A program made the position numbers and the translations under genes. A stretch of DNA of 64,000 nt, from the NCBI GenBank assembly GCA_963665815.1, contig OY762463.1, positions 3,808,001 through 3,872,000 of the forward strand, written 5' to 3'. The stretch's first letter is position 1, and every line of letters starts with the position of its first letter. Below are positions 2,951 to 48,659 of this stretch, piece after piece. A model generated the notes under the pieces. That model worked only from the letters and a program-made list of their open reading frames with translations, was not told the DNA's origin and made no database searches. Origin of the DNA: Candidatus Cloacimonadales bacterium. GTDB lineage: Bacteria; Cloacimonadota; Cloacimonadia; Cloacimonadales; JAIOQZ01.

Positions 2951-3733
2951 ATGAGACCATATATTATAGCCGGCAACTGGAAAATGAATAAGAATTTTGA
3001 AGAAGCTGATGATTTTTTATATCAACTTACAGAGTACGTCGATGCAAATGAGGAAAACCTTGAAGGAATTGATATTGTTGTTGCAACACCTTACCTTTAT
3101 CTTGAAATGGCAACAGATTATTCCGAGAACAGACCTATGTATATCTCCTCTCAAAATGTCAGCGAAAAAGATCAGGGAGCTTATACAGGTGAAGTCTCAG
3201 CTGATATGCTGGAATCACTGGATGTCGGATATTGTATAGTCGGACATTCCGAAAGAAGAAAATACTATAATGATACAGATAAAATTGTGAATATGAAAAT
3301 CCAGCAGCTTCAAAAGAACAATATTGTTCCGATTGTCTGCATTGGAGAAACTGAAGAACAAAGAACAGCCGGAGATACAGAGAAAGTTCTCCTTGCTCAG
3401 CTTAAGGGTGCGTTTGATGGTATTCTCTTTCACGAAGATCAGCCAATTTTGATTGCTTATGAACCTATATGGGCAATTGGTACAGGTAAAACTGCAACTC
3501 CTGAAATTGCTCAGAAAGCACATGCCTTTATCAGAAACTGGTTGAAAGAAAACTATGCAGACAGTGTCTCCGAAAGAGTTCCTCTCCTTTATGGTGGAAG
3601 CGTTAAACCTGCAAATATTAAGGAACTTCTCAGTATGAAAGATATTGATGGAGCCTTGATTGGTGGAGCATCACTAAATATTGATGATTATACAGACATG
3701 ATAAATATTGCGATAGGGATGGTAGAAAAATAA
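2951..3733 (+). CDS. tpiA: Triosephosphate isomerase
   Basis: AGNWKMN, GHSERR, AYEPIWAIGTG, LYGGSVKP motifs. Confidence 0.98.
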   Translation: MRPYIIAGNWKMNKNFEEADDFLYQLTEYVDANEENLEGIDIVVATPYLYLEMATDYSENRPMYISSQNVSEKDQGAYTGEVSADMLESLDVGYCIVGHSERRKYYNDTDKIVNMKIQQLQKNNIVPIVCIGETEEQRTAGDTEKVLLAQLKGAFDGILFHEDQPILIAYEPIWAIGTGKTATPEIAQKAHAFIRNWLKENYADSVSERVPLLYGGSVKPANIKELLSMKDIDGALIGGASLNIDDYTDMINIAIGMVEK

Positions 3734-5343: not shown

Positions 5344-6901
<1,558 letters not shown>

Positions 6902-6973
6902 ACGAATATTTCTAAAATTCAAAATTATATAATTATCTTCCTATCTCTCATTCCAATCTTATAAATTTTCCGG

Positions 6974-7050
<77 letters not shown>

Positions 7051-7053
7051 GAT

Positions 7054-7129
7054 GGGGGATTAGCTTAGCTGGGAGAGCGCTGCCCTTGCAAGGCAGAGGT
7101 CATCGGTTCGAATCCGATATCCTCCACCA
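7054..7129 (+). tRNA. tRNA-Ala(TGC)
   Basis: GGGGGAT/ATCCTCC acceptor with G3:U70, anticodon TGC, encoded CCA. Confidence 0.97.
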
Positions 7130-7234
7130 ATATTTTTTGATCATTAAAAAAGTTTTAAATAGAAGTGAGATAGAGTGAAAGAGCGAAAAAGAGATAGCGA
7201 TAAACAAAGCTAAAGAATTTTCACATTATAAAAG

Positions 7235-10146
<2,912 letters not shown>

Positions 10147-10188
10147 ATTTTATTCACTCTATCTCATACATTTTAGTCAGGCTATTAA

Positions 10189-10305
10189 TGTGGTGGTTTT
10201 GGCGGTGAGGTCACACCTGTACCCATCCCGAACACAGAAGTTAAGCTCACCTGCGCCGATGGTACTGCTTGGGAAACTGAGTGGGAGAGTAGGTCGCCGC
10301 CACTT
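10189..10305 (+). rRNA. rrf: 5S ribosomal RNA
   Basis: CACCTGTACCCATCCCGAACACAGAAGTTAAG and GAGAGTAGG motifs; flanked by CAGGCTATTAA/TTAATAGCCTG stem. Confidence 0.97.
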
Positions 10306-34621: not shown

Positions 34622-36259
34622 CTACTTCATCATGATCATTTTATGGGTTTGTGTAGCATTTCCGCTTGTTAATCTGTAGAAGTAAATTCCACTGCTGCAG
34701 GCAGAACCGGATTGGCTCTTACCATTCCAGATAACTGAGTGATTCCCTTTTGTTTCAAATTTATTTACAAGAGTATTAATTTTTTGTCCTTTAATATTGA
34801 AAATTTCGAGTTTTACATTATTGTCAGACGGAATAGAGAACTCGATTCTTGTTTCAGGGTTGAATGGGTTAGGATAATTACTTATTGCAAAATCTTTCGA
34901 TGGAGCAAAGTCGAAATCAACAGGCGCATTCAGCTCTGCACACGAAAAAGCTCCCCAGAAAATTGCATTGCTGTTGATATCTGTAAATTCCATATCATCA
35001 ACATAACAGCTGTCAGAAAGTTCACCAATCATATATACAAGAGTGTCATTAACACTGCAAACACAAAGACTGCTGGAGCTTCCACTCCCCTGACCTTCCG
35101 TATCTTCAATCCAGGACCAGTCTCCTTCTGAATTCAGCGCTGCAATAAAAAAAGATGTTTCATTTGGTTCATAGTTGAAGACCGATTCTCCGAAGTTTGC
35201 ATATCCGGTATAGTGTCCAGAAACTAATATTCTTCCTGATTCAGTCAGGCACATTCTATAATTTCTGTCATATCCTGTACCGCCGGCAGGAACTATCCAT
35301 ACACAGTTTAAGTCGCTGTCCAGCTTGATTATTGCTGCATCCATACTTCCAGAACAGGTAACAGTTTGATTATCAAATGAAAGATTATCCTCAAATATAC
35401 AGGAAAGATATATGTTTCCTGCATCATCTACTTCAATATCATATCCTGATTCAAAACCTGTTCCGTCGATATTTGAGTATGATACTTCGTTTCCATCCGG
35501 TTCTGTAATCCATAAAAATGCGCAGTAGTCACATTCAGAATTATAACCTGTTGAATAAATGTTCCCATCAGCTCCGATATCAATTCCGTAACCACAGTCC
35601 TGACCGGAAGTTCCATGGTTTTGTGCCCATATCCAGTTTCCGGTTGTATCAAGCTTTGCCAGCAGAGCATCATCTCGACCATTCGATGTAAGAGTCTGAC
35701 TGCCAAAAGATGCAGTATCGGACAACTGTCCTGATACATAGATATTGCCTTGATGATCAAGTTTCATATCATAGATCATGTCATCTCCGGAGCTTCCGGT
35801 ATGTGTAATCCAATCCCATTGACCATCAGGAGTTATTCTGGAAATGAATATATCTCTTAGTGCATTCATCTGAACAGAATTTGTACCAAAATAAGCTGTT
35901 CCTGGTCCAGTAATGAGACCAGCCAGATAAATAAAACCTTGGGAATCAACATCAATTGTCATACCTTCGTCAAACCCTGTGCCTCCAGCACTTAAAACCC
36001 AGAGACATTCGCCTGAAGGGTCATATTTTGCAATAAAAATATCATAATATCCGTTAGACGTGAGAAGGAATTCCTCGATTCTCAAAGAATCTTCAAACCT
36101 ACCGGTAATATAAATATTCTGTGATTCATCTACGAATATTTCACGACCTCTGTCAACTCCAGGACCATCATAGCATTTGATATCATACCATTCAGCCTCC
36201 TGTGCACAAATCTGAAAAGACGCTGTTAAGATAATAAGAAGCATAATTGTTTGTCTCAT
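34622..36259 (-). CDS. Secreted SBBP-repeat beta-propeller protein with FlgD-Ig/T9SS-A-like C-terminus (paralog 1)
   Basis: Repeats D-x-x-GNIYxxG..DIFIAKYD..G..W; NYPNPFNPET; start placed at MRQTIM after AAGGAGG. Confidence 0.85.
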   Translation of the reverse strand: MRQTIMLLIILTASFQICAQEAEWYDIKCYDGPGVDRGREIFVDESQNIYITGRFEDSLRIEEFLLTSNGYYDIFIAKYDPSGECLWVLSAGGTGFDEGMTIDVDSQGFIYLAGLITGPGTAYFGTNSVQMNALRDIFISRITPDGQWDWITHTGSSGDDMIYDMKLDHQGNIYVSGQLSDTASFGSQTLTSNGRDDALLAKLDTTGNWIWAQNHGTSGQDCGYGIDIGADGNIYSTGYNSECDYCAFLWITEPDGNEVSYSNIDGTGFESGYDIEVDDAGNIYLSCIFEDNLSFDNQTVTCSGSMDAAIIKLDSDLNCVWIVPAGGTGYDRNYRMCLTESGRILVSGHYTGYANFGESVFNYEPNETSFFIAALNSEGDWSWIEDTEGQGSGSSSSLCVCSVNDTLVYMIGELSDSCYVDDMEFTDINSNAIFWGAFSCAELNAPVDFDFAPSKDFAISNYPNPFNPETRIEFSIPSDNNVKLEIFNIKGQKINTLVNKFETKGNHSVIWNGKSQSGSACSSGIYFYRLTSGNATQTHKMIMMK

Positions 36260-36507
36260 CTGTTCCTCCTTAAGGTTTATAGTCGCTGTCCCAACCAGCA
36301 TGTATTTAGAGTAATGCTCAAAAAATAAACCTATATTAATTATTTGTCAAAATATTTATAACTAATGTTTCCGACTTGATCTAAGTCATGATGATGAAAT
36401 AATATAACAAAAAAAAGATTTCATAATAAGATTTTCGTAACTTACTATAATCTATATAATTAACTAAAACGTAATACCTTAATTAATTTGTGAAAATAGT
36501 TCATTGG

Positions 36508-36704
36508 AATTGATTACATTCGTTTTCTTTGGTGTCAAAGAAAACGAAGCTAATGAAAGCACTTCTTTTTCAAAAAGTATTTTCAGCAAGCTGAAATCGT
36601 AAATCTTCCCTGAAATCCATCCAAGGCTTCAGGATTTCTTAACGGGAAAATTTACTATACGAAAGAAAAAGAAGAAATACCTCAAGCGGTGCAAAGCATT
36701 TAAA
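36508..36704 (+). repeat. Dispersed structured repeat or ncRNA candidate, copy 1
   Basis: Homologous to 48471-48659 with compensatory stem changes; strand uncertain. Confidence 0.75.
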
Positions 36705-36897: not shown

Positions 36898-38601
36898 CTA
36901 TTTTAACAATAACTTTTGTGTTTTTACTTCTTCACCTGTGTTAAGTTTAAAAAAGTAAACTCCACTGCTGCATGGTTTACTATCATTATCTGTTCCATCC
37001 CAAACTACAGAGTTTTCACCTTTTTCGAAGTTCGTGCTCTCAAATGTTTTAATTTTCTGACCTTTGATGTTATATATACCCATTTCTGCAATTGTATCTT
37101 TTGCGAAAGAGAACTCAATTCTGGTCTCGGGATTAAATTTGTTCGGGAAGTTACCTATCAGTTCACCTGTATATGATGCATCCATTGTGAAATCAATCTC
37201 ATTATCTTTTTTCCCAGGACGTAGGATTGCCCAAAATGGATCATTGTTAGAAACACCTGATCCGGAAAGTTCTGTATCGACCTGAATACTACCAAAATTC
37301 GATGATCCGTTAATGGTACCAGTAACTATAATATCTCCGTCGATAGAAACGTCGAGTGAGCGTGCAAATACGTTGTAGTATGAGTTGCGAATCTGACTTA
37401 TCTGAGTATTGTATTTCAACCAGTTAAGTGATCCAGTGTGACTTAAAGAAGCTACATAGAGTTGAGAGCTGTTTGATGGTCCCTGTACAGGACTAAAATT
37501 GGCAGATTGCCCCATCATTCCACTGACGATAACACCATTCTCGCTATTTCTAATGTTTCCGGGACGATCTTCTCCATTGCTGTTAATATTATAAACCCAT
37601 TGAGTATTCAGCTGAGGATCCAACTTACATACGTAGCAATTATAATTGTTAACACTACCTGAAATACCGATTGCATCCATTTTAATGTTATTCTTATAAG
37701 ATCCTAAAACATAAACGTTGGAACTGTCATCAACACAGACACCTTTAATATAATCATCTCTTAAACATTTGAAAGTGATGACATTTGTCCAGAAGGGAGT
37801 TGAGTCGATTTTGCCTAAAAATCCATCAATCTGACCGAAGATGTCAACAGCTTGACCTCCAAAATAACTATCTGAACCAATTACTCCTGCAACATATAGG
37901 TCTGTGTCTCCATTATGTTCATCTAATGCAAGGGCAAAAGCATAATCTTTACCTGTTCCTCCGGCTGTTTTGATCCAATTTAGAGTTCCATCAGAACCGT
38001 AGCAGGCTGCGAAAATATCTAAATCACCGTTACTGTTAATTTTATGTCCTTCAATTGTTACAGTATCAGAAAAGCCTCCGACAGTGTAAACATTGTCATT
38101 GGAATCTATCTTGATGTCATAAATTAAATCATCTTCCTGGCTACCAAACACCTTAATCCACTGATATTGACCCATAGTATTGAGCTTTGCTATAAATGAA
38201 TCTTCGAAATTTGCGTAGTAATTAAAACTACCATCAAAAATTGGATTAGATGATAGATATCCAACTACATACACATTGCCATTACTGTCTACATCAATAC
38301 CATATGAGTCATCCCAGGATGTTCCTCCAAAAGTTTGCACCCACTGTAAAACATTGAGCTTGTTATATTTGGCAAGGTAAATATCAAAATCCCCATGGCT
38401 GTAATATGAATTGTTACCAAGATTTATATGATCAGTGAATCTTCCTGTTACATAGTAATTTCCAGATGAATCATAAGCTATATCTCTTCCTTCATCTCTA
38501 CCTGGACTTTTTAGACTCTGGATGTTTTGCCAAGACGGATCTTCTCCTGACAATATAGTAAAAAGTATTACAAAAATGATTATTGAGTATAGTCTATTCA
38601 T
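36898..38601 (-). CDS. Secreted SBBP-repeat beta-propeller protein (paralog 2)
   Basis: Same repeat pattern; C-terminal GNFPNKFNPETRIEF...SSGVYF. Confidence 0.85.
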   Translation of the reverse strand: MNRLYSIIIFVILFTILSGEDPSWQNIQSLKSPGRDEGRDIAYDSSGNYYVTGRFTDHINLGNNSYYSHGDFDIYLAKYNKLNVLQWVQTFGGTSWDDSYGIDVDSNGNVYVVGYLSSNPIFDGSFNYYANFEDSFIAKLNTMGQYQWIKVFGSQEDDLIYDIKIDSNDNVYTVGGFSDTVTIEGHKINSNGDLDIFAACYGSDGTLNWIKTAGGTGKDYAFALALDEHNGDTDLYVAGVIGSDSYFGGQAVDIFGQIDGFLGKIDSTPFWTNVITFKCLRDDYIKGVCVDDSSNVYVLGSYKNNIKMDAIGISGSVNNYNCYVCKLDPQLNTQWVYNINSNGEDRPGNIRNSENGVIVSGMMGQSANFSPVQGPSNSSQLYVASLSHTGSLNWLKYNTQISQIRNSYYNVFARSLDVSIDGDIIVTGTINGSSNFGSIQVDTELSGSGVSNNDPFWAILRPGKKDNEIDFTMDASYTGELIGNFPNKFNPETRIEFSFAKDTIAEMGIYNIKGQKIKTFESTNFEKGENSVVWDGTDNDSKPCSSGVYFFKLNTGEEVKTQKLLLK

Positions 38602-40782: not shown

Positions 40783-40869
40783 TGGTACCAGAGGCCGGAC
40801 TTGAACCGGCACGAAGCGAGCTTCGAGGGATTTTAAGTCCCTTGTGTCTACCAATTCCACCACTCCGGC
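40783..40869 (-). tRNA. tRNA-Leu(TAA)
   Basis: GCCGGAGTGGTGGAATTGGTAGAC..., anticodon TAA, long variable arm, CCA. Confidence 0.96.
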
Positions 40870-40884
40870 AAGCAATATCAAAAA

Positions 40885-40958
40885 TGGAGGCGACACCCGG
40901 ATTCGAACCGGGGATGAAGATTTTGCAGACCTTAGCCTTACCACTTGGCGATGTCGCC
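40885..40958 (-). tRNA. tRNA-Cys(GCA)
   Basis: GGCGACATCGCCAAGTGGTAAGGC..CT-GCA-AA..TCCA (U73). Confidence 0.96.
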
Positions 40959-40972
40959 TGATTAAAAAAAAA

Positions 40973-41047
<75 letters not shown>

Positions 41048-48470: not shown

Positions 48471-48659
48471 AATTGATTACTTTCATTTTCTTTATATGAC
48501 TAAAGAAAACTAAACAAAAGAAACGACATCTTTTTCAGATGTATTTCCAGCCAGCTGGAACCACAAATCTTTCCTAAAATCCTTCCAAGGCTTCAGGATT
48601 TCTAAACGGAAAGATTTCTTATACAAGAGAAAAAGAGACAGTAGGTGCAAAGCCTTAAA
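48471..48659 (+). repeat. Dispersed structured repeat or ncRNA candidate, copy 2
   Basis: Homologous to 36508-36704. Confidence 0.75.

Follow-up and report, generated by a model that had tools for sequence, protein, structure and literature searches.

Does a short intergenic segment that recurs in a bacterial genome with its base pairing preserved represent a structured RNA, or a nonautonomous mobile element? The question arises from a window of 64,000 nucleotides (G000:C1:3808001-3872000), the whole stretch of DNA analysed here, in a Cloacimonadales genome consisting of a single contig (G000; 3.96 Mb, 36% G+C). A sequence-only reading had picked out two segments of this window, here called copies A and B (Table 1), and had proposed selection on a fold of RNA or single-stranded DNA. 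Its coordinates and the common orientation of the two copies are correct, and ORFs reaching 60 aa are absent from both segments, in keeping with its claim that they lack one. Both compensatory differences are present as it quoted them (TTTCAGC..GCTGAAA versus TTCCAGC..GCTGGAA, and AAATCTTCCC/GGGAAAATTT versus AAATCTTTCC/GGAAAGATTT), as are a 5′ hairpin whose loop differs between the copies and an invariant loop, TCCAAGGCTTCA. Mean column identity between the two is 84% over 256 aligned columns. The plus strand of copy A (plus denoting the orientation of that reading) folds at -52.7 kcal/mol compared with -33.2 ± 4.3 for 200 shuffled sequences, none of which folds as well (z -4.6), and its minus strand folds at -58.6 kcal/mol (z -5.1).

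A family of elements in two bacterial phyla

Both window segments are members of a family of ~165-nt structured elements that is absent from Rfam 15. Three rounds of nhmmer searching in G000 returned 31, 37, and 51 hits, which resolve into 31 separate copies above 60 bits (two of them partial, at 267010 and 3274666) and an additional solo 5′ hairpin at 2206510; the leftover hits come from reading the palindromic hairpin on the opposite strand. With this many copies in G000, and many more in other genomes, the two segments are not the product of one local duplication. A second genome of the same genus (G001) has about 29 matches, and BLAST found none in 39 other relatives. With the covariance model, 3/151 Cloacimonadota genomes match, namely G000, G001, and one genome with a weak 53-bit hit, and the element is present in 2/53 genera of the phylum. 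A pattern for the invariant loop, compared with 185,579 species genomes, matches only three: the Cloacimonadales MAG, Flavobacterium sp. BFFFF2 (also a MAG; G158), and Aquimarina litoralis. The Flavobacterium genome has 99 covariance-model matches, ~45 of them complete and the others short or truncated, with many copies in its arrays ending early, after helix P4; A. litoralis has four. Among sampled Flavobacteriales, 8/151 genomes match at E ≤ 1e-8, mostly with one to four copies each, a figure that is an undercount owing to strict filters.

Outside these genomes, a two-anchor pattern identified 101 metagenomic stretches, many of them marine, and had no match in viral contigs; blastn found none in phage records. 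Plasmid records yielded only a 40-nt match, covering the first hairpin (P1) and the linker that follows it, in two Pseudoalteromonas records of chromid size. There the hairpin-plus-linker module is joined to a different 3′ domain and is a distant relative of the family. Tandem copies are common, at a spacing of 180-520 nt, and in some copies an extra 39-nt hairpin (GTTGATGAAAT..ATTTCATC) has been added at either of two sites; this hairpin occurs 15 times within or adjoining copies and twice elsewhere. The family is thus found in two bacterial phyla with 0 to about 100 copies per genome, and its distribution is best read as the result of both horizontal spread and duplication.

The RNA families catalogued in Rfam do not account for the element. 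Searched against the 4227 models of Rfam 15 at gathering thresholds, the whole window gives only its rRNA operon and tRNAs. The two intergenic regions at E ≤ 10 give only chance matches to eukaryotic snoRNAs and miRNAs below 24 bits, and 20 diverse related loci at E ≤ 0.1 give no hit on the element. No Rfam family matches it, so the strong hit that would have removed its novelty did not appear. The resemblance to Flavo-1 suggested in the sequence-only reading is not supported, since RF01705 has no match at E ≤ 10 on either copy; the lone weak Flavo-1 hit among the 20 loci (32.9 bits, against a gathering score of 42 bits) lies at positions 189-272 of locus L141, ~1.2 kb away from the element at 1479-1651. 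The two motifs are alike in being intergenic, in lacking an ORF, in occurring in Flavobacteriia, in having covarying stems, and in having no known function, but the present element is about twice as long, contains a pseudoknot and a three-way junction, and occurs in Cloacimonadota as well. REP/BIME/REPIN and BOX repeats are short, species-specific palindromes. The element shares with them a dispersed or clustered intergenic distribution, conserved pairing, modularity, and variable copy number, and differs from them in its 165-nt branched fold, in loops that are invariant across phyla, and in having no adjacent RAYT gene. We found no description of the motif in the literature, which is not proof that it is unpublished.

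Table 1. Positions of the features of copies A and B (window coordinates) and of one MITE unit (G000 coordinates)
Feature	Position	Details
Copy A, bounds in the sequence-only reading	36508..36704	
Copy A, conserved core	36517-36676	covariance-model match; G000 3844517-3844676; 148.9 bits
Copy A, P1 hairpin	36519..36548	TTCGTTTTCTTTG 36519-36531, loop GTGT 36532-35, CAAAGAAAACGAA 36536-48
Copy A, linker GCTAATGAAAGCAC	36549..36562	counterpart of the family mirror repeat CAAAAGAAA; predicted third strand
Copy A, P2 long-range stem	36562..36674	36562-71 with 36665-74; encloses P3, P4, P5
Copy A, P3	36577-80 / 36657-60	
Copy A, P4 hairpin	36581-96	
Copy A, P5 arm	36599-36610 / 36644-55	
Copy A, P6 stem	36612..36638	36612-18 / 36632-38; invariant 13-nt apical loop CATCCAAGGCTTC-A, 36619-31
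Copy B, bounds in the sequence-only reading	48471..48659	
Copy B, core	48480-48640	
Copy B, P1	48482-94 / 48501-13	CGAA>CTAA weakens the lower stem
Copy B, linker	48514-24	canonical sequence ACAAAAGAAAC
Copy B, pseudoknot strand GACAT	48525-29	
Copy B, invariant apical loop TTCCAAGGCTTCA	48583..48595	
MITE, 381-bp unit	3278277-3278657	L220:7612-7992; terminal inverted repeats TGGAATCCCCCCG and CGGGGGGATGCC

A covarying fold, a pseudoknot, and a predicted triple helix

Covariation across the family supports selection on a fold, as had been proposed from the two window copies. We collected 183 instances (136 unique), reduced these to 77 representatives with less than 92% identity, and aligned 71; 68 strong matches to a model derived from the predicted structure of copy A (R1; 167 positions, 51 pairs) were then re-aligned. 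In this 68-sequence alignment, whose fitting to the model favours structure, 88.7% of 3390 cells are paired, compared with 71.1% in shuffled alignments and 46-58% when pairing partners are slid. Changes on both sides are seen in 36/51 pairs, and double-change cells number 662, against 223 ± 13 after shuffling (none of 500 shuffles reaches the observed value) and 86-163 with slid partners. An untrained MAFFT/RNAalifold run gave a similar picture, with double changes in 18/19 predicted pairs.

Helices P2 to P6 all covary, for example CUCUUUUU/AAAAAGAG versus GGCCCGCAUA/UAUGCGGGCC and GUAU/AUAC versus GUCA/UGAC. P2, in which 73.5% of cells are paired because its outer pairs are poorly aligned, encloses a three-way junction made up of P3 (4 bp), the hairpin P4, which is free to vary in both sequence and length, and the P5-P6 arm. 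This arm carries conserved internal-loop bases (CUAAA / UUCUUAACG) and ends in the invariant loop UYUCCAAGGCUUCA. In the search made for a target of this loop, no notable complementary 11-12-mer was found outside the copies, and none in rRNA. The 5′ hairpin, P1, is a near-invariant U/A helix of 13 bp in which 8/13 pairs never vary and in which 75/83 sequences have a conserved A·C mismatch on the plus strand; copy A has G-C at this position. P1 is followed, in the plus orientation, by an A-rich linker, CAAAAGAAA. Short ORFs running through P1 were considered as a coding signal and rejected, as they change frame between sub-families and copy A has no ATG.

Beyond these helices, a stretch of 3-5 nt after the linker forms a pseudoknot by pairing with the 3′ side of the P1 loop. 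At least eight complementary sequence pairs occur across the family (loop/linker TGTCC/GGACA, CGTCT/GGACG, GGCCC/GGGCC, AGCCC/GGGCT, GTGCC/GGCAC, CGCC/GGCG, TGCCC/GGGCA, and ATGTC/GACAT), and in copy A the GCAC that follows the linker pairs with GTG(T)C of the P1 loop. In more than 200 instances the linker, AAAAGAAA, is the mirror image of the P1 purine strand, AAAGAAAA, and only a few single-copy variants depart from this rule. Copy A itself has two substitutions within its linker. Read directly on the minus strand, the segments begin with the pseudoknot strand and UUUCUUUU; after a short turn come UUUUCUUUG, which is the Watson-Crick strand, then the loop that contains the partner of the pseudoknot strand, and finally CAAAGAAAA. 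Two of the three strands concerned are pyrimidine and the third is purine, and their polarity and register are right for a triplex.

This is the arrangement of an H-type pseudoknot whose loop 1 would lie in the major groove of stem 2. On the minus strand the linker, UUUCUUUU, would occupy the major groove of P1 in parallel with AAAGAAAA, the purine strand, forming eight triples, seven U·A-U and one C+·G-C, stacked under the pseudoknot helix. Such a triplex would account for the lack of any covariation in P1 and the linker, in contrast to all the other helices. Members of a sub-family found in at least four genomes have a UUUCUUUU / AAAAGAAA hairpin with the linker AAAGAAAA, a joint shift by one position of the C and G of the hairpin and of the G in the third strand. 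They comprise Aquimarina copy 4 and copies in G189 (L270), G229 (L271, three tandem copies), and G175 (L279), with G169 (L284) a probable further member. L270 and the three tandem copies of L271 are otherwise full homologues (131.7 bits). The three-strand co-shift is the sort of change that a triplex would be expected to leave, but it is probably a single evolutionary event inherited by the sub-family. The natural triple-compensatory variant makes the predicted triplex directly testable with few mutants. The mirror rule would be obeyed equally by a purine-motif triplex on the plus strand. Copies from marine Bacteroidota have further conserved modules beyond P1, so there a minus-strand triplex would be terminal only after processing.

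The topology that we propose has known counterparts. An H-type pseudoknot with a major-groove triplex is found in telomerase RNA and in the SAM-II and preQ1-II riboswitches, and the 3′ ends of MALAT1 and PAN RNA (ENE) are capped by a triplex of comparable length. Read on the minus strand, the predicted structure resembles these in its strand order, in a third strand parallel to the purine strand, and in the combination of U·A-U triples with one C+·G-C; the strands of the predicted triplex are invariant while other stems covary. The element differs in having no adjacent regulated gene, in being joined to a three-way junction, and in its many copies. In the passages of the review on which we draw, four consecutive U·A-U/C·G-C triples suffice for a triplex, and the bacterial examples given have two or three (PMC7583470). 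With eight consecutive triples, the predicted helix would be several times the length of the triplexes of bacterial riboswitches, at least as these are represented in the same passages (PMC7583470).

Genomic context and a MITE that carries the core

The element shows no association with particular genes. The 62 ORFs flanking the 31 copies in G000 have unrelated functions, including GroEL, glycine-cleavage P protein, ETF, regulators, and several T9SS-tail proteins, and include no transposase; the 98 neighbours scanned at metagenome loci are equally diverse. Metagenomic neighbours also show little preference in orientation (5′ side, 34 same and 22 opposite; 3′ side, 30 same and 29 opposite). We found no constant position or orientation upstream of a coherent set of genes, as would be expected of a riboswitch or other cis-regulatory leader. 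A link to LytTR regulators was considered, as 2/4 Aquimarina copies lie 81-92 nt downstream of such a gene, and was given up as a general association, as 0/98 metagenome neighbours have the domain. Likewise set aside was a promoter reading of the TTTG that commonly precedes P1 in Bacteroidota, where conserved modules lie upstream and no clear -7 box is seen. In G000, a divergent gene lies on the 5′ side of 24/31 copies, and the copy is antisense, in the plus orientation, in 14/15 tandem-gene contexts.

Most of the orientation bias in G000 is due to a MITE, since a divergent gene adjoins 15/17 MITE-borne copies. Seventeen of the 31 copies occur in a long form of about 370-380 bp with common flanks of ~80 nt on the 5′ side and ~100 nt on the 3′ side. 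A 381-bp unit (Table 1) is flanked by a 17-bp direct repeat, TATTTTTGTTTACCTAT, at L220:7595-7611 and 7993-8009, and the syntenic site in G001 has one near-identical copy of this target and no element, so that the search for an empty allele succeeded for a MITE-borne copy. Five more copies have target duplications that differ from one another and measure 13-17 bp. Its terminal inverted repeats, site-specific duplications, lack of an ORF, multiple copies, and empty site identify the long form as a MITE. A 57-bp derivative at about G000 3249040-3249100 consists of the two inverted repeats alone, within a 15-bp duplication, which indicates that the structured core is cargo and that transposition does not require it.

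The duplicated target mostly lies directly against GTCAA(G); this is the divergent gene's -35 hexamer, TTGAC(A), and at two sites a promoter of the form TTGACA-N17/18-TATATA can be read. The 17/31 G000 copies inside the MITE were amplified as its cargo, and the MITE inserts immediately upstream of -35 boxes. The capture and amplification of a structured module by a MITE with this preference is relevant to the ways in which repeats rewire promoters. In length its target duplications match those of the ISTde1 subgroup (IS1202 family), for which the parts of the preprint used here give direct repeats of 15-17 bp and inverted repeats that begin with 5′-TGT; the ends of the MITE differ, being TGG/TGC (bioRxiv 10.1101/2022.12.17.520857). 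Among the rve-domain genes of G000 and the genes beside the MITE ends that were examined, no partner transposase was found; the two rve-domain genes, of which one is Mu/Tn7-like and has an ATPase beside it, bear no relation to the MITE ends. A truncated left end at 1898326 and an end at 3249066 were examined as possible remains of an autonomous parent and rejected, as they adjoin T9SS-type proteins and not transposases.

The suggestion that the segments might be a nonautonomous mobile element is partly borne out, by the 17 G000 copies inside the MITE; the two copies from which it was made both lie outside it. The MITE terminal inverted repeat motif is absent between 3808001 and 3872000, and all Bacteroidota copies likewise lack the MITE inverted repeats. 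Copy B belongs to a syntenic block of 2.5 kb that, together with the element, is 91% identical in G001, and the MITE-free copies at 1191935, 1194423, 1451958, 2291667, and 3274666 likewise have syntenic sites in G001 (with a tandem pair there at the last), making 6/6 of those checked. The neighbours of copy A, which are T9SS-type beta-propeller proteins, show no clear synteny in G001. Identity between G000 and G001 is 84-93% for element and flanking intergenic sequence, a divergence at which inside and outside show no useful difference. The window copies are best read as older, stable, MITE-free copies.

RNA or single-stranded DNA

If the element is an RNA, we favour transcription from the minus strand. 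The conserved A·C mismatch of P1 on the plus strand becomes G·U on the minus strand, and over all pairs A·C outnumbers G·U on the plus strand by 269 to 107 cells (60 to 37 in P3-P6). The slightly lower folding energy and the chemistry of the predicted triplex point the same way. On the other side, P4 in Flavobacterium copies is closed by cUUCGg, cUGCGg, and cUUUGg loops when read on the plus strand, cUUCGg also closes a hairpin 3′ of P2 in many marine copies, and the Pseudoalteromonas relative has U·G in its lower P1 stem; the tetraloop and wobble evidence is therefore mixed. Wobble pairs make up only ~2-3% of P3-P6 cells on either strand, a scarcity that a fold of single-stranded DNA would also fit.

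We give an even chance to the reading in which the element is a transcribed, stable non-coding RNA that combines a pseudoknot/triple-helix cap with a three-way-junction binding domain. The cap would make the end of the RNA resistant to exonucleases, and the invariant loop and junction may bind a protein or RNA partner. Family membership, covariation, the pseudoknot, the mirror repeat with its co-shift, and the lack of gene association are the observations on which this reading draws; transcription, the strand, the triple helix, and a stabilising role are what it would add to them.

An unlikely alternative, though one with several observations on its side, is that the fold acts as single-stranded DNA. 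REP/REPIN sequences, the ends of IS200/IS605 elements, and integron attC sites are folded single-stranded DNAs recognised by an enzyme supplied in trans, and the element could likewise be a nonautonomous mobile element whose hairpin and junction are recognised by an HUH/Y1 transposase, a tyrosine recombinase, or some other enzyme with ssDNA as its substrate. Its copy number (0 to ~100 per genome), its patchy presence in 2/53 Cloacimonadota genera and 8/151 Flavobacteriales genomes, and its dense tandem arrays with truncated units are all what such an element would show, as is the rough symmetry of the rare wobble pairs between strands. The 13-bp arms of P1, with a 4-8-bp spacer and a conserved mismatch, are like a recombinase or transposase site, and TTGAT-containing motifs bracket the Flavobacterium units. 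G000 also has two Y1_Tnp-like genes, but these lie at least 70 kb from any copy, and the copy-richest genome, G158, has no Y1_Tnp or TnpB hit, although as a MAG its lack of the gene is not proof of absence. TnpB had no hits in G000, G001, or G159 either, and neither an IS110-type DEDD transposase (PF01548) nor a reverse transcriptase (PF00078) was found in G000. The check for a linked transposase, TnpB, IS110, or reverse transcriptase gene beside the copies thus came back negative. The element thereby lacks the marks of an IS200/IS605 end, a PATE, or a TnpB omega-RNA, with which copies would be expected at the ends of Y1 transposase or TnpB genes, and, as far as G000 goes, those of an IS110/IS1111 bridge or seek RNA, a retron ncRNA, or a group II intron. 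Two further points weigh against mobility of the core, namely that every one of the 6 MITE-free copies checked is syntenic in G001, and hence stable, and that the sole documented insertion is explained by the inverted repeats and target duplication of the MITE and not by the core. Nor is a pseudoknot with a mirror-repeat third strand known from DNA sites of this kind. Should the fold nevertheless act as DNA, it would point to a mobilising enzyme yet to be identified.

Less probable still is a role in cis, in which a REP/BOX/ERIC-like repeat is co-transcribed with its neighbours and acts as an RNA roadblock that stabilises or insulates mRNAs with no partner of its own. The element is always intergenic and its neighbours are unrelated, it is modular (the 39-nt hairpin is an optional insert, found in 15 places, and marine copies have additional modules upstream), and a fold of such high stability, possibly including a triplex, would stop 3′-5′ exonucleases. 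The minus-strand reading is moreover co-directional with both neighbours in the 14/15 tandem-gene contexts of G000. This orientation bias, however, mostly reflects the insertion preference of the MITE, with a divergent gene on the same side of 15/17 MITE-borne copies, and it is gone in the metagenome loci (15 same/same against 8 opposite/opposite). Many copies also lie several hundred bases from the nearest gene, and a roadblock leaves unexplained why the 13-nt loop is invariant and the junction bases are conserved across phyla. That the three-way junction is a new self-cleaving ribozyme seems very improbable: multiple and tandem copies, the lack of a conserved neighbour, and conserved unpaired junction and loop bases recall the habits of bacterial hammerhead and twister ribozymes, but none of the ribozyme families in Rfam hits the element, even at E ≤ 10, junction strands of 0, 3-4, and 2 nt appear unlike the hammerhead core, and the data show no sign of a cleavage site.

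The transcribed, stable non-coding RNA that we prefer would constitute a sizeable and widespread class of structured RNA missing from current RNA family libraries, with unusually good covariation support. A bolder form of this reading, in which bacteria of two or more phyla share a non-coding RNA that spreads horizontally, bears an eight-triple cap stacked on a pseudoknot as a bacterial counterpart of the MALAT1/PAN stability element, joins this cap to a three-way-junction domain with an invariant binding loop, and has become the cargo of a promoter-targeting MITE in one lineage, is less likely than not. Against the preferred reading, the many truncated Flavobacterium copies and the linker substitutions of copy A suggest decaying repeats rather than working genes.

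The MITE carrying the element and its short derivative form

A MITE encloses the element at 17 sites in the genome that holds the window, the 381-bp copy listed in the table and 16 more, none of which lies inside the window. Its target duplications are 14–17 bp long. The insertion directly adjoins the -35 box (TTGACA) of a divergent gene in most copies, and the orientation of the MITE beside this box is constant. We also found a mini-MITE, which is flanked by a 15-bp target duplication and followed immediately downstream by the promoter (TTGACA-N18-TATATA) of a gene for a protein with a type IX secretion (T9SS) tail. Elsewhere on the contig, a 477-aa ORF that weakly matches the rve domain precedes a gene for a P-loop ATPase; the pair resembles a transposition module of the Mu or Tn7 kind and has no relation to the element.

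Positions of the features discussed (G000:C1, the single-contig genome holding the window; L-numbers, locus stretches)
Feature	Position	Details
MITE, 381 bp	G000:C1:3278277-3278657 (= L220:7612-7992)	ends TGGAATCCCCCCG / CGGGGGGATGCC
Mini-MITE, 57 bp	G000:C1 about 3249040-3249100 (= L256 about 3040-3100)	only the two inverted repeats
477-aa ORF	G000:C1:90294-91727	weak rve-domain match
39-nt hairpin module, further sites	G000 1447333 and 1451882	
Non-coding stretch with companion hairpin modules	L174:1640-2000 and similar marine loci	
Companion modules 5′ of P1	L098, L100, L135, L191	
Aquimarina litoralis copies near LytTR genes	L247:2437-4471 and L248:3909-5993	
Gammaproteobacterial relative	L264:1251-2129	Pseudoalteromonas sp. 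NC201, NZ_CP022523.1
Complete rRNA operon	window 5344-10305	16S, tRNA-tRNA, 23S, 5S
Cluster of three tRNA genes	window 40786-41047	minus strand

Hairpin modules in and around the element

A 39-nt hairpin module (GTTGATGAAAT..ATTTCATC) occurs at 15 sites in or beside element copies of the same genome and occupies two distinct insertion positions within them; it looks like a small insert in its own right. In marine Bacteroidota, the element sits in non-coding stretches of 1–2 kb together with other conserved hairpin modules. These companions include GGGAGCTCGTGAATCTCC..GTCGATTTG, a covarying hairpin immediately upstream of P1 (the 5′ hairpin of the element), and a hairpin family, TTTCTTTTG-N8-CAAAAGAAA, of which a single genome holds up to 21 copies; the marine companion modules gave no Rfam matches.

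Relatives and neighboring genes

Two of the four Aquimarina litoralis copies lie 81–92 nt past the stop codon of a gene for a LytTR response regulator, whose partner is a histidine kinase, and the convergent arrangement is identical at the two sites; no such neighbor was seen in metagenome loci. The Pseudoalteromonas relative, present as several copies inside 1 kb, retains only the hairpin, mirror-repeat linker, and pseudoknot strand, and its 3′ domain differs from that of the element.

Within the window, two paralogous beta-propeller proteins with SBBP repeats (34622-36301 and 36898-38601) flank copy A (36508-36704), and at least one of them (34622-36301) bears a C-terminal sorting domain for type IX secretion. 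Across this genome, copies often have Por_Secre_tail proteins as neighbors (7/62 flanking ORFs).
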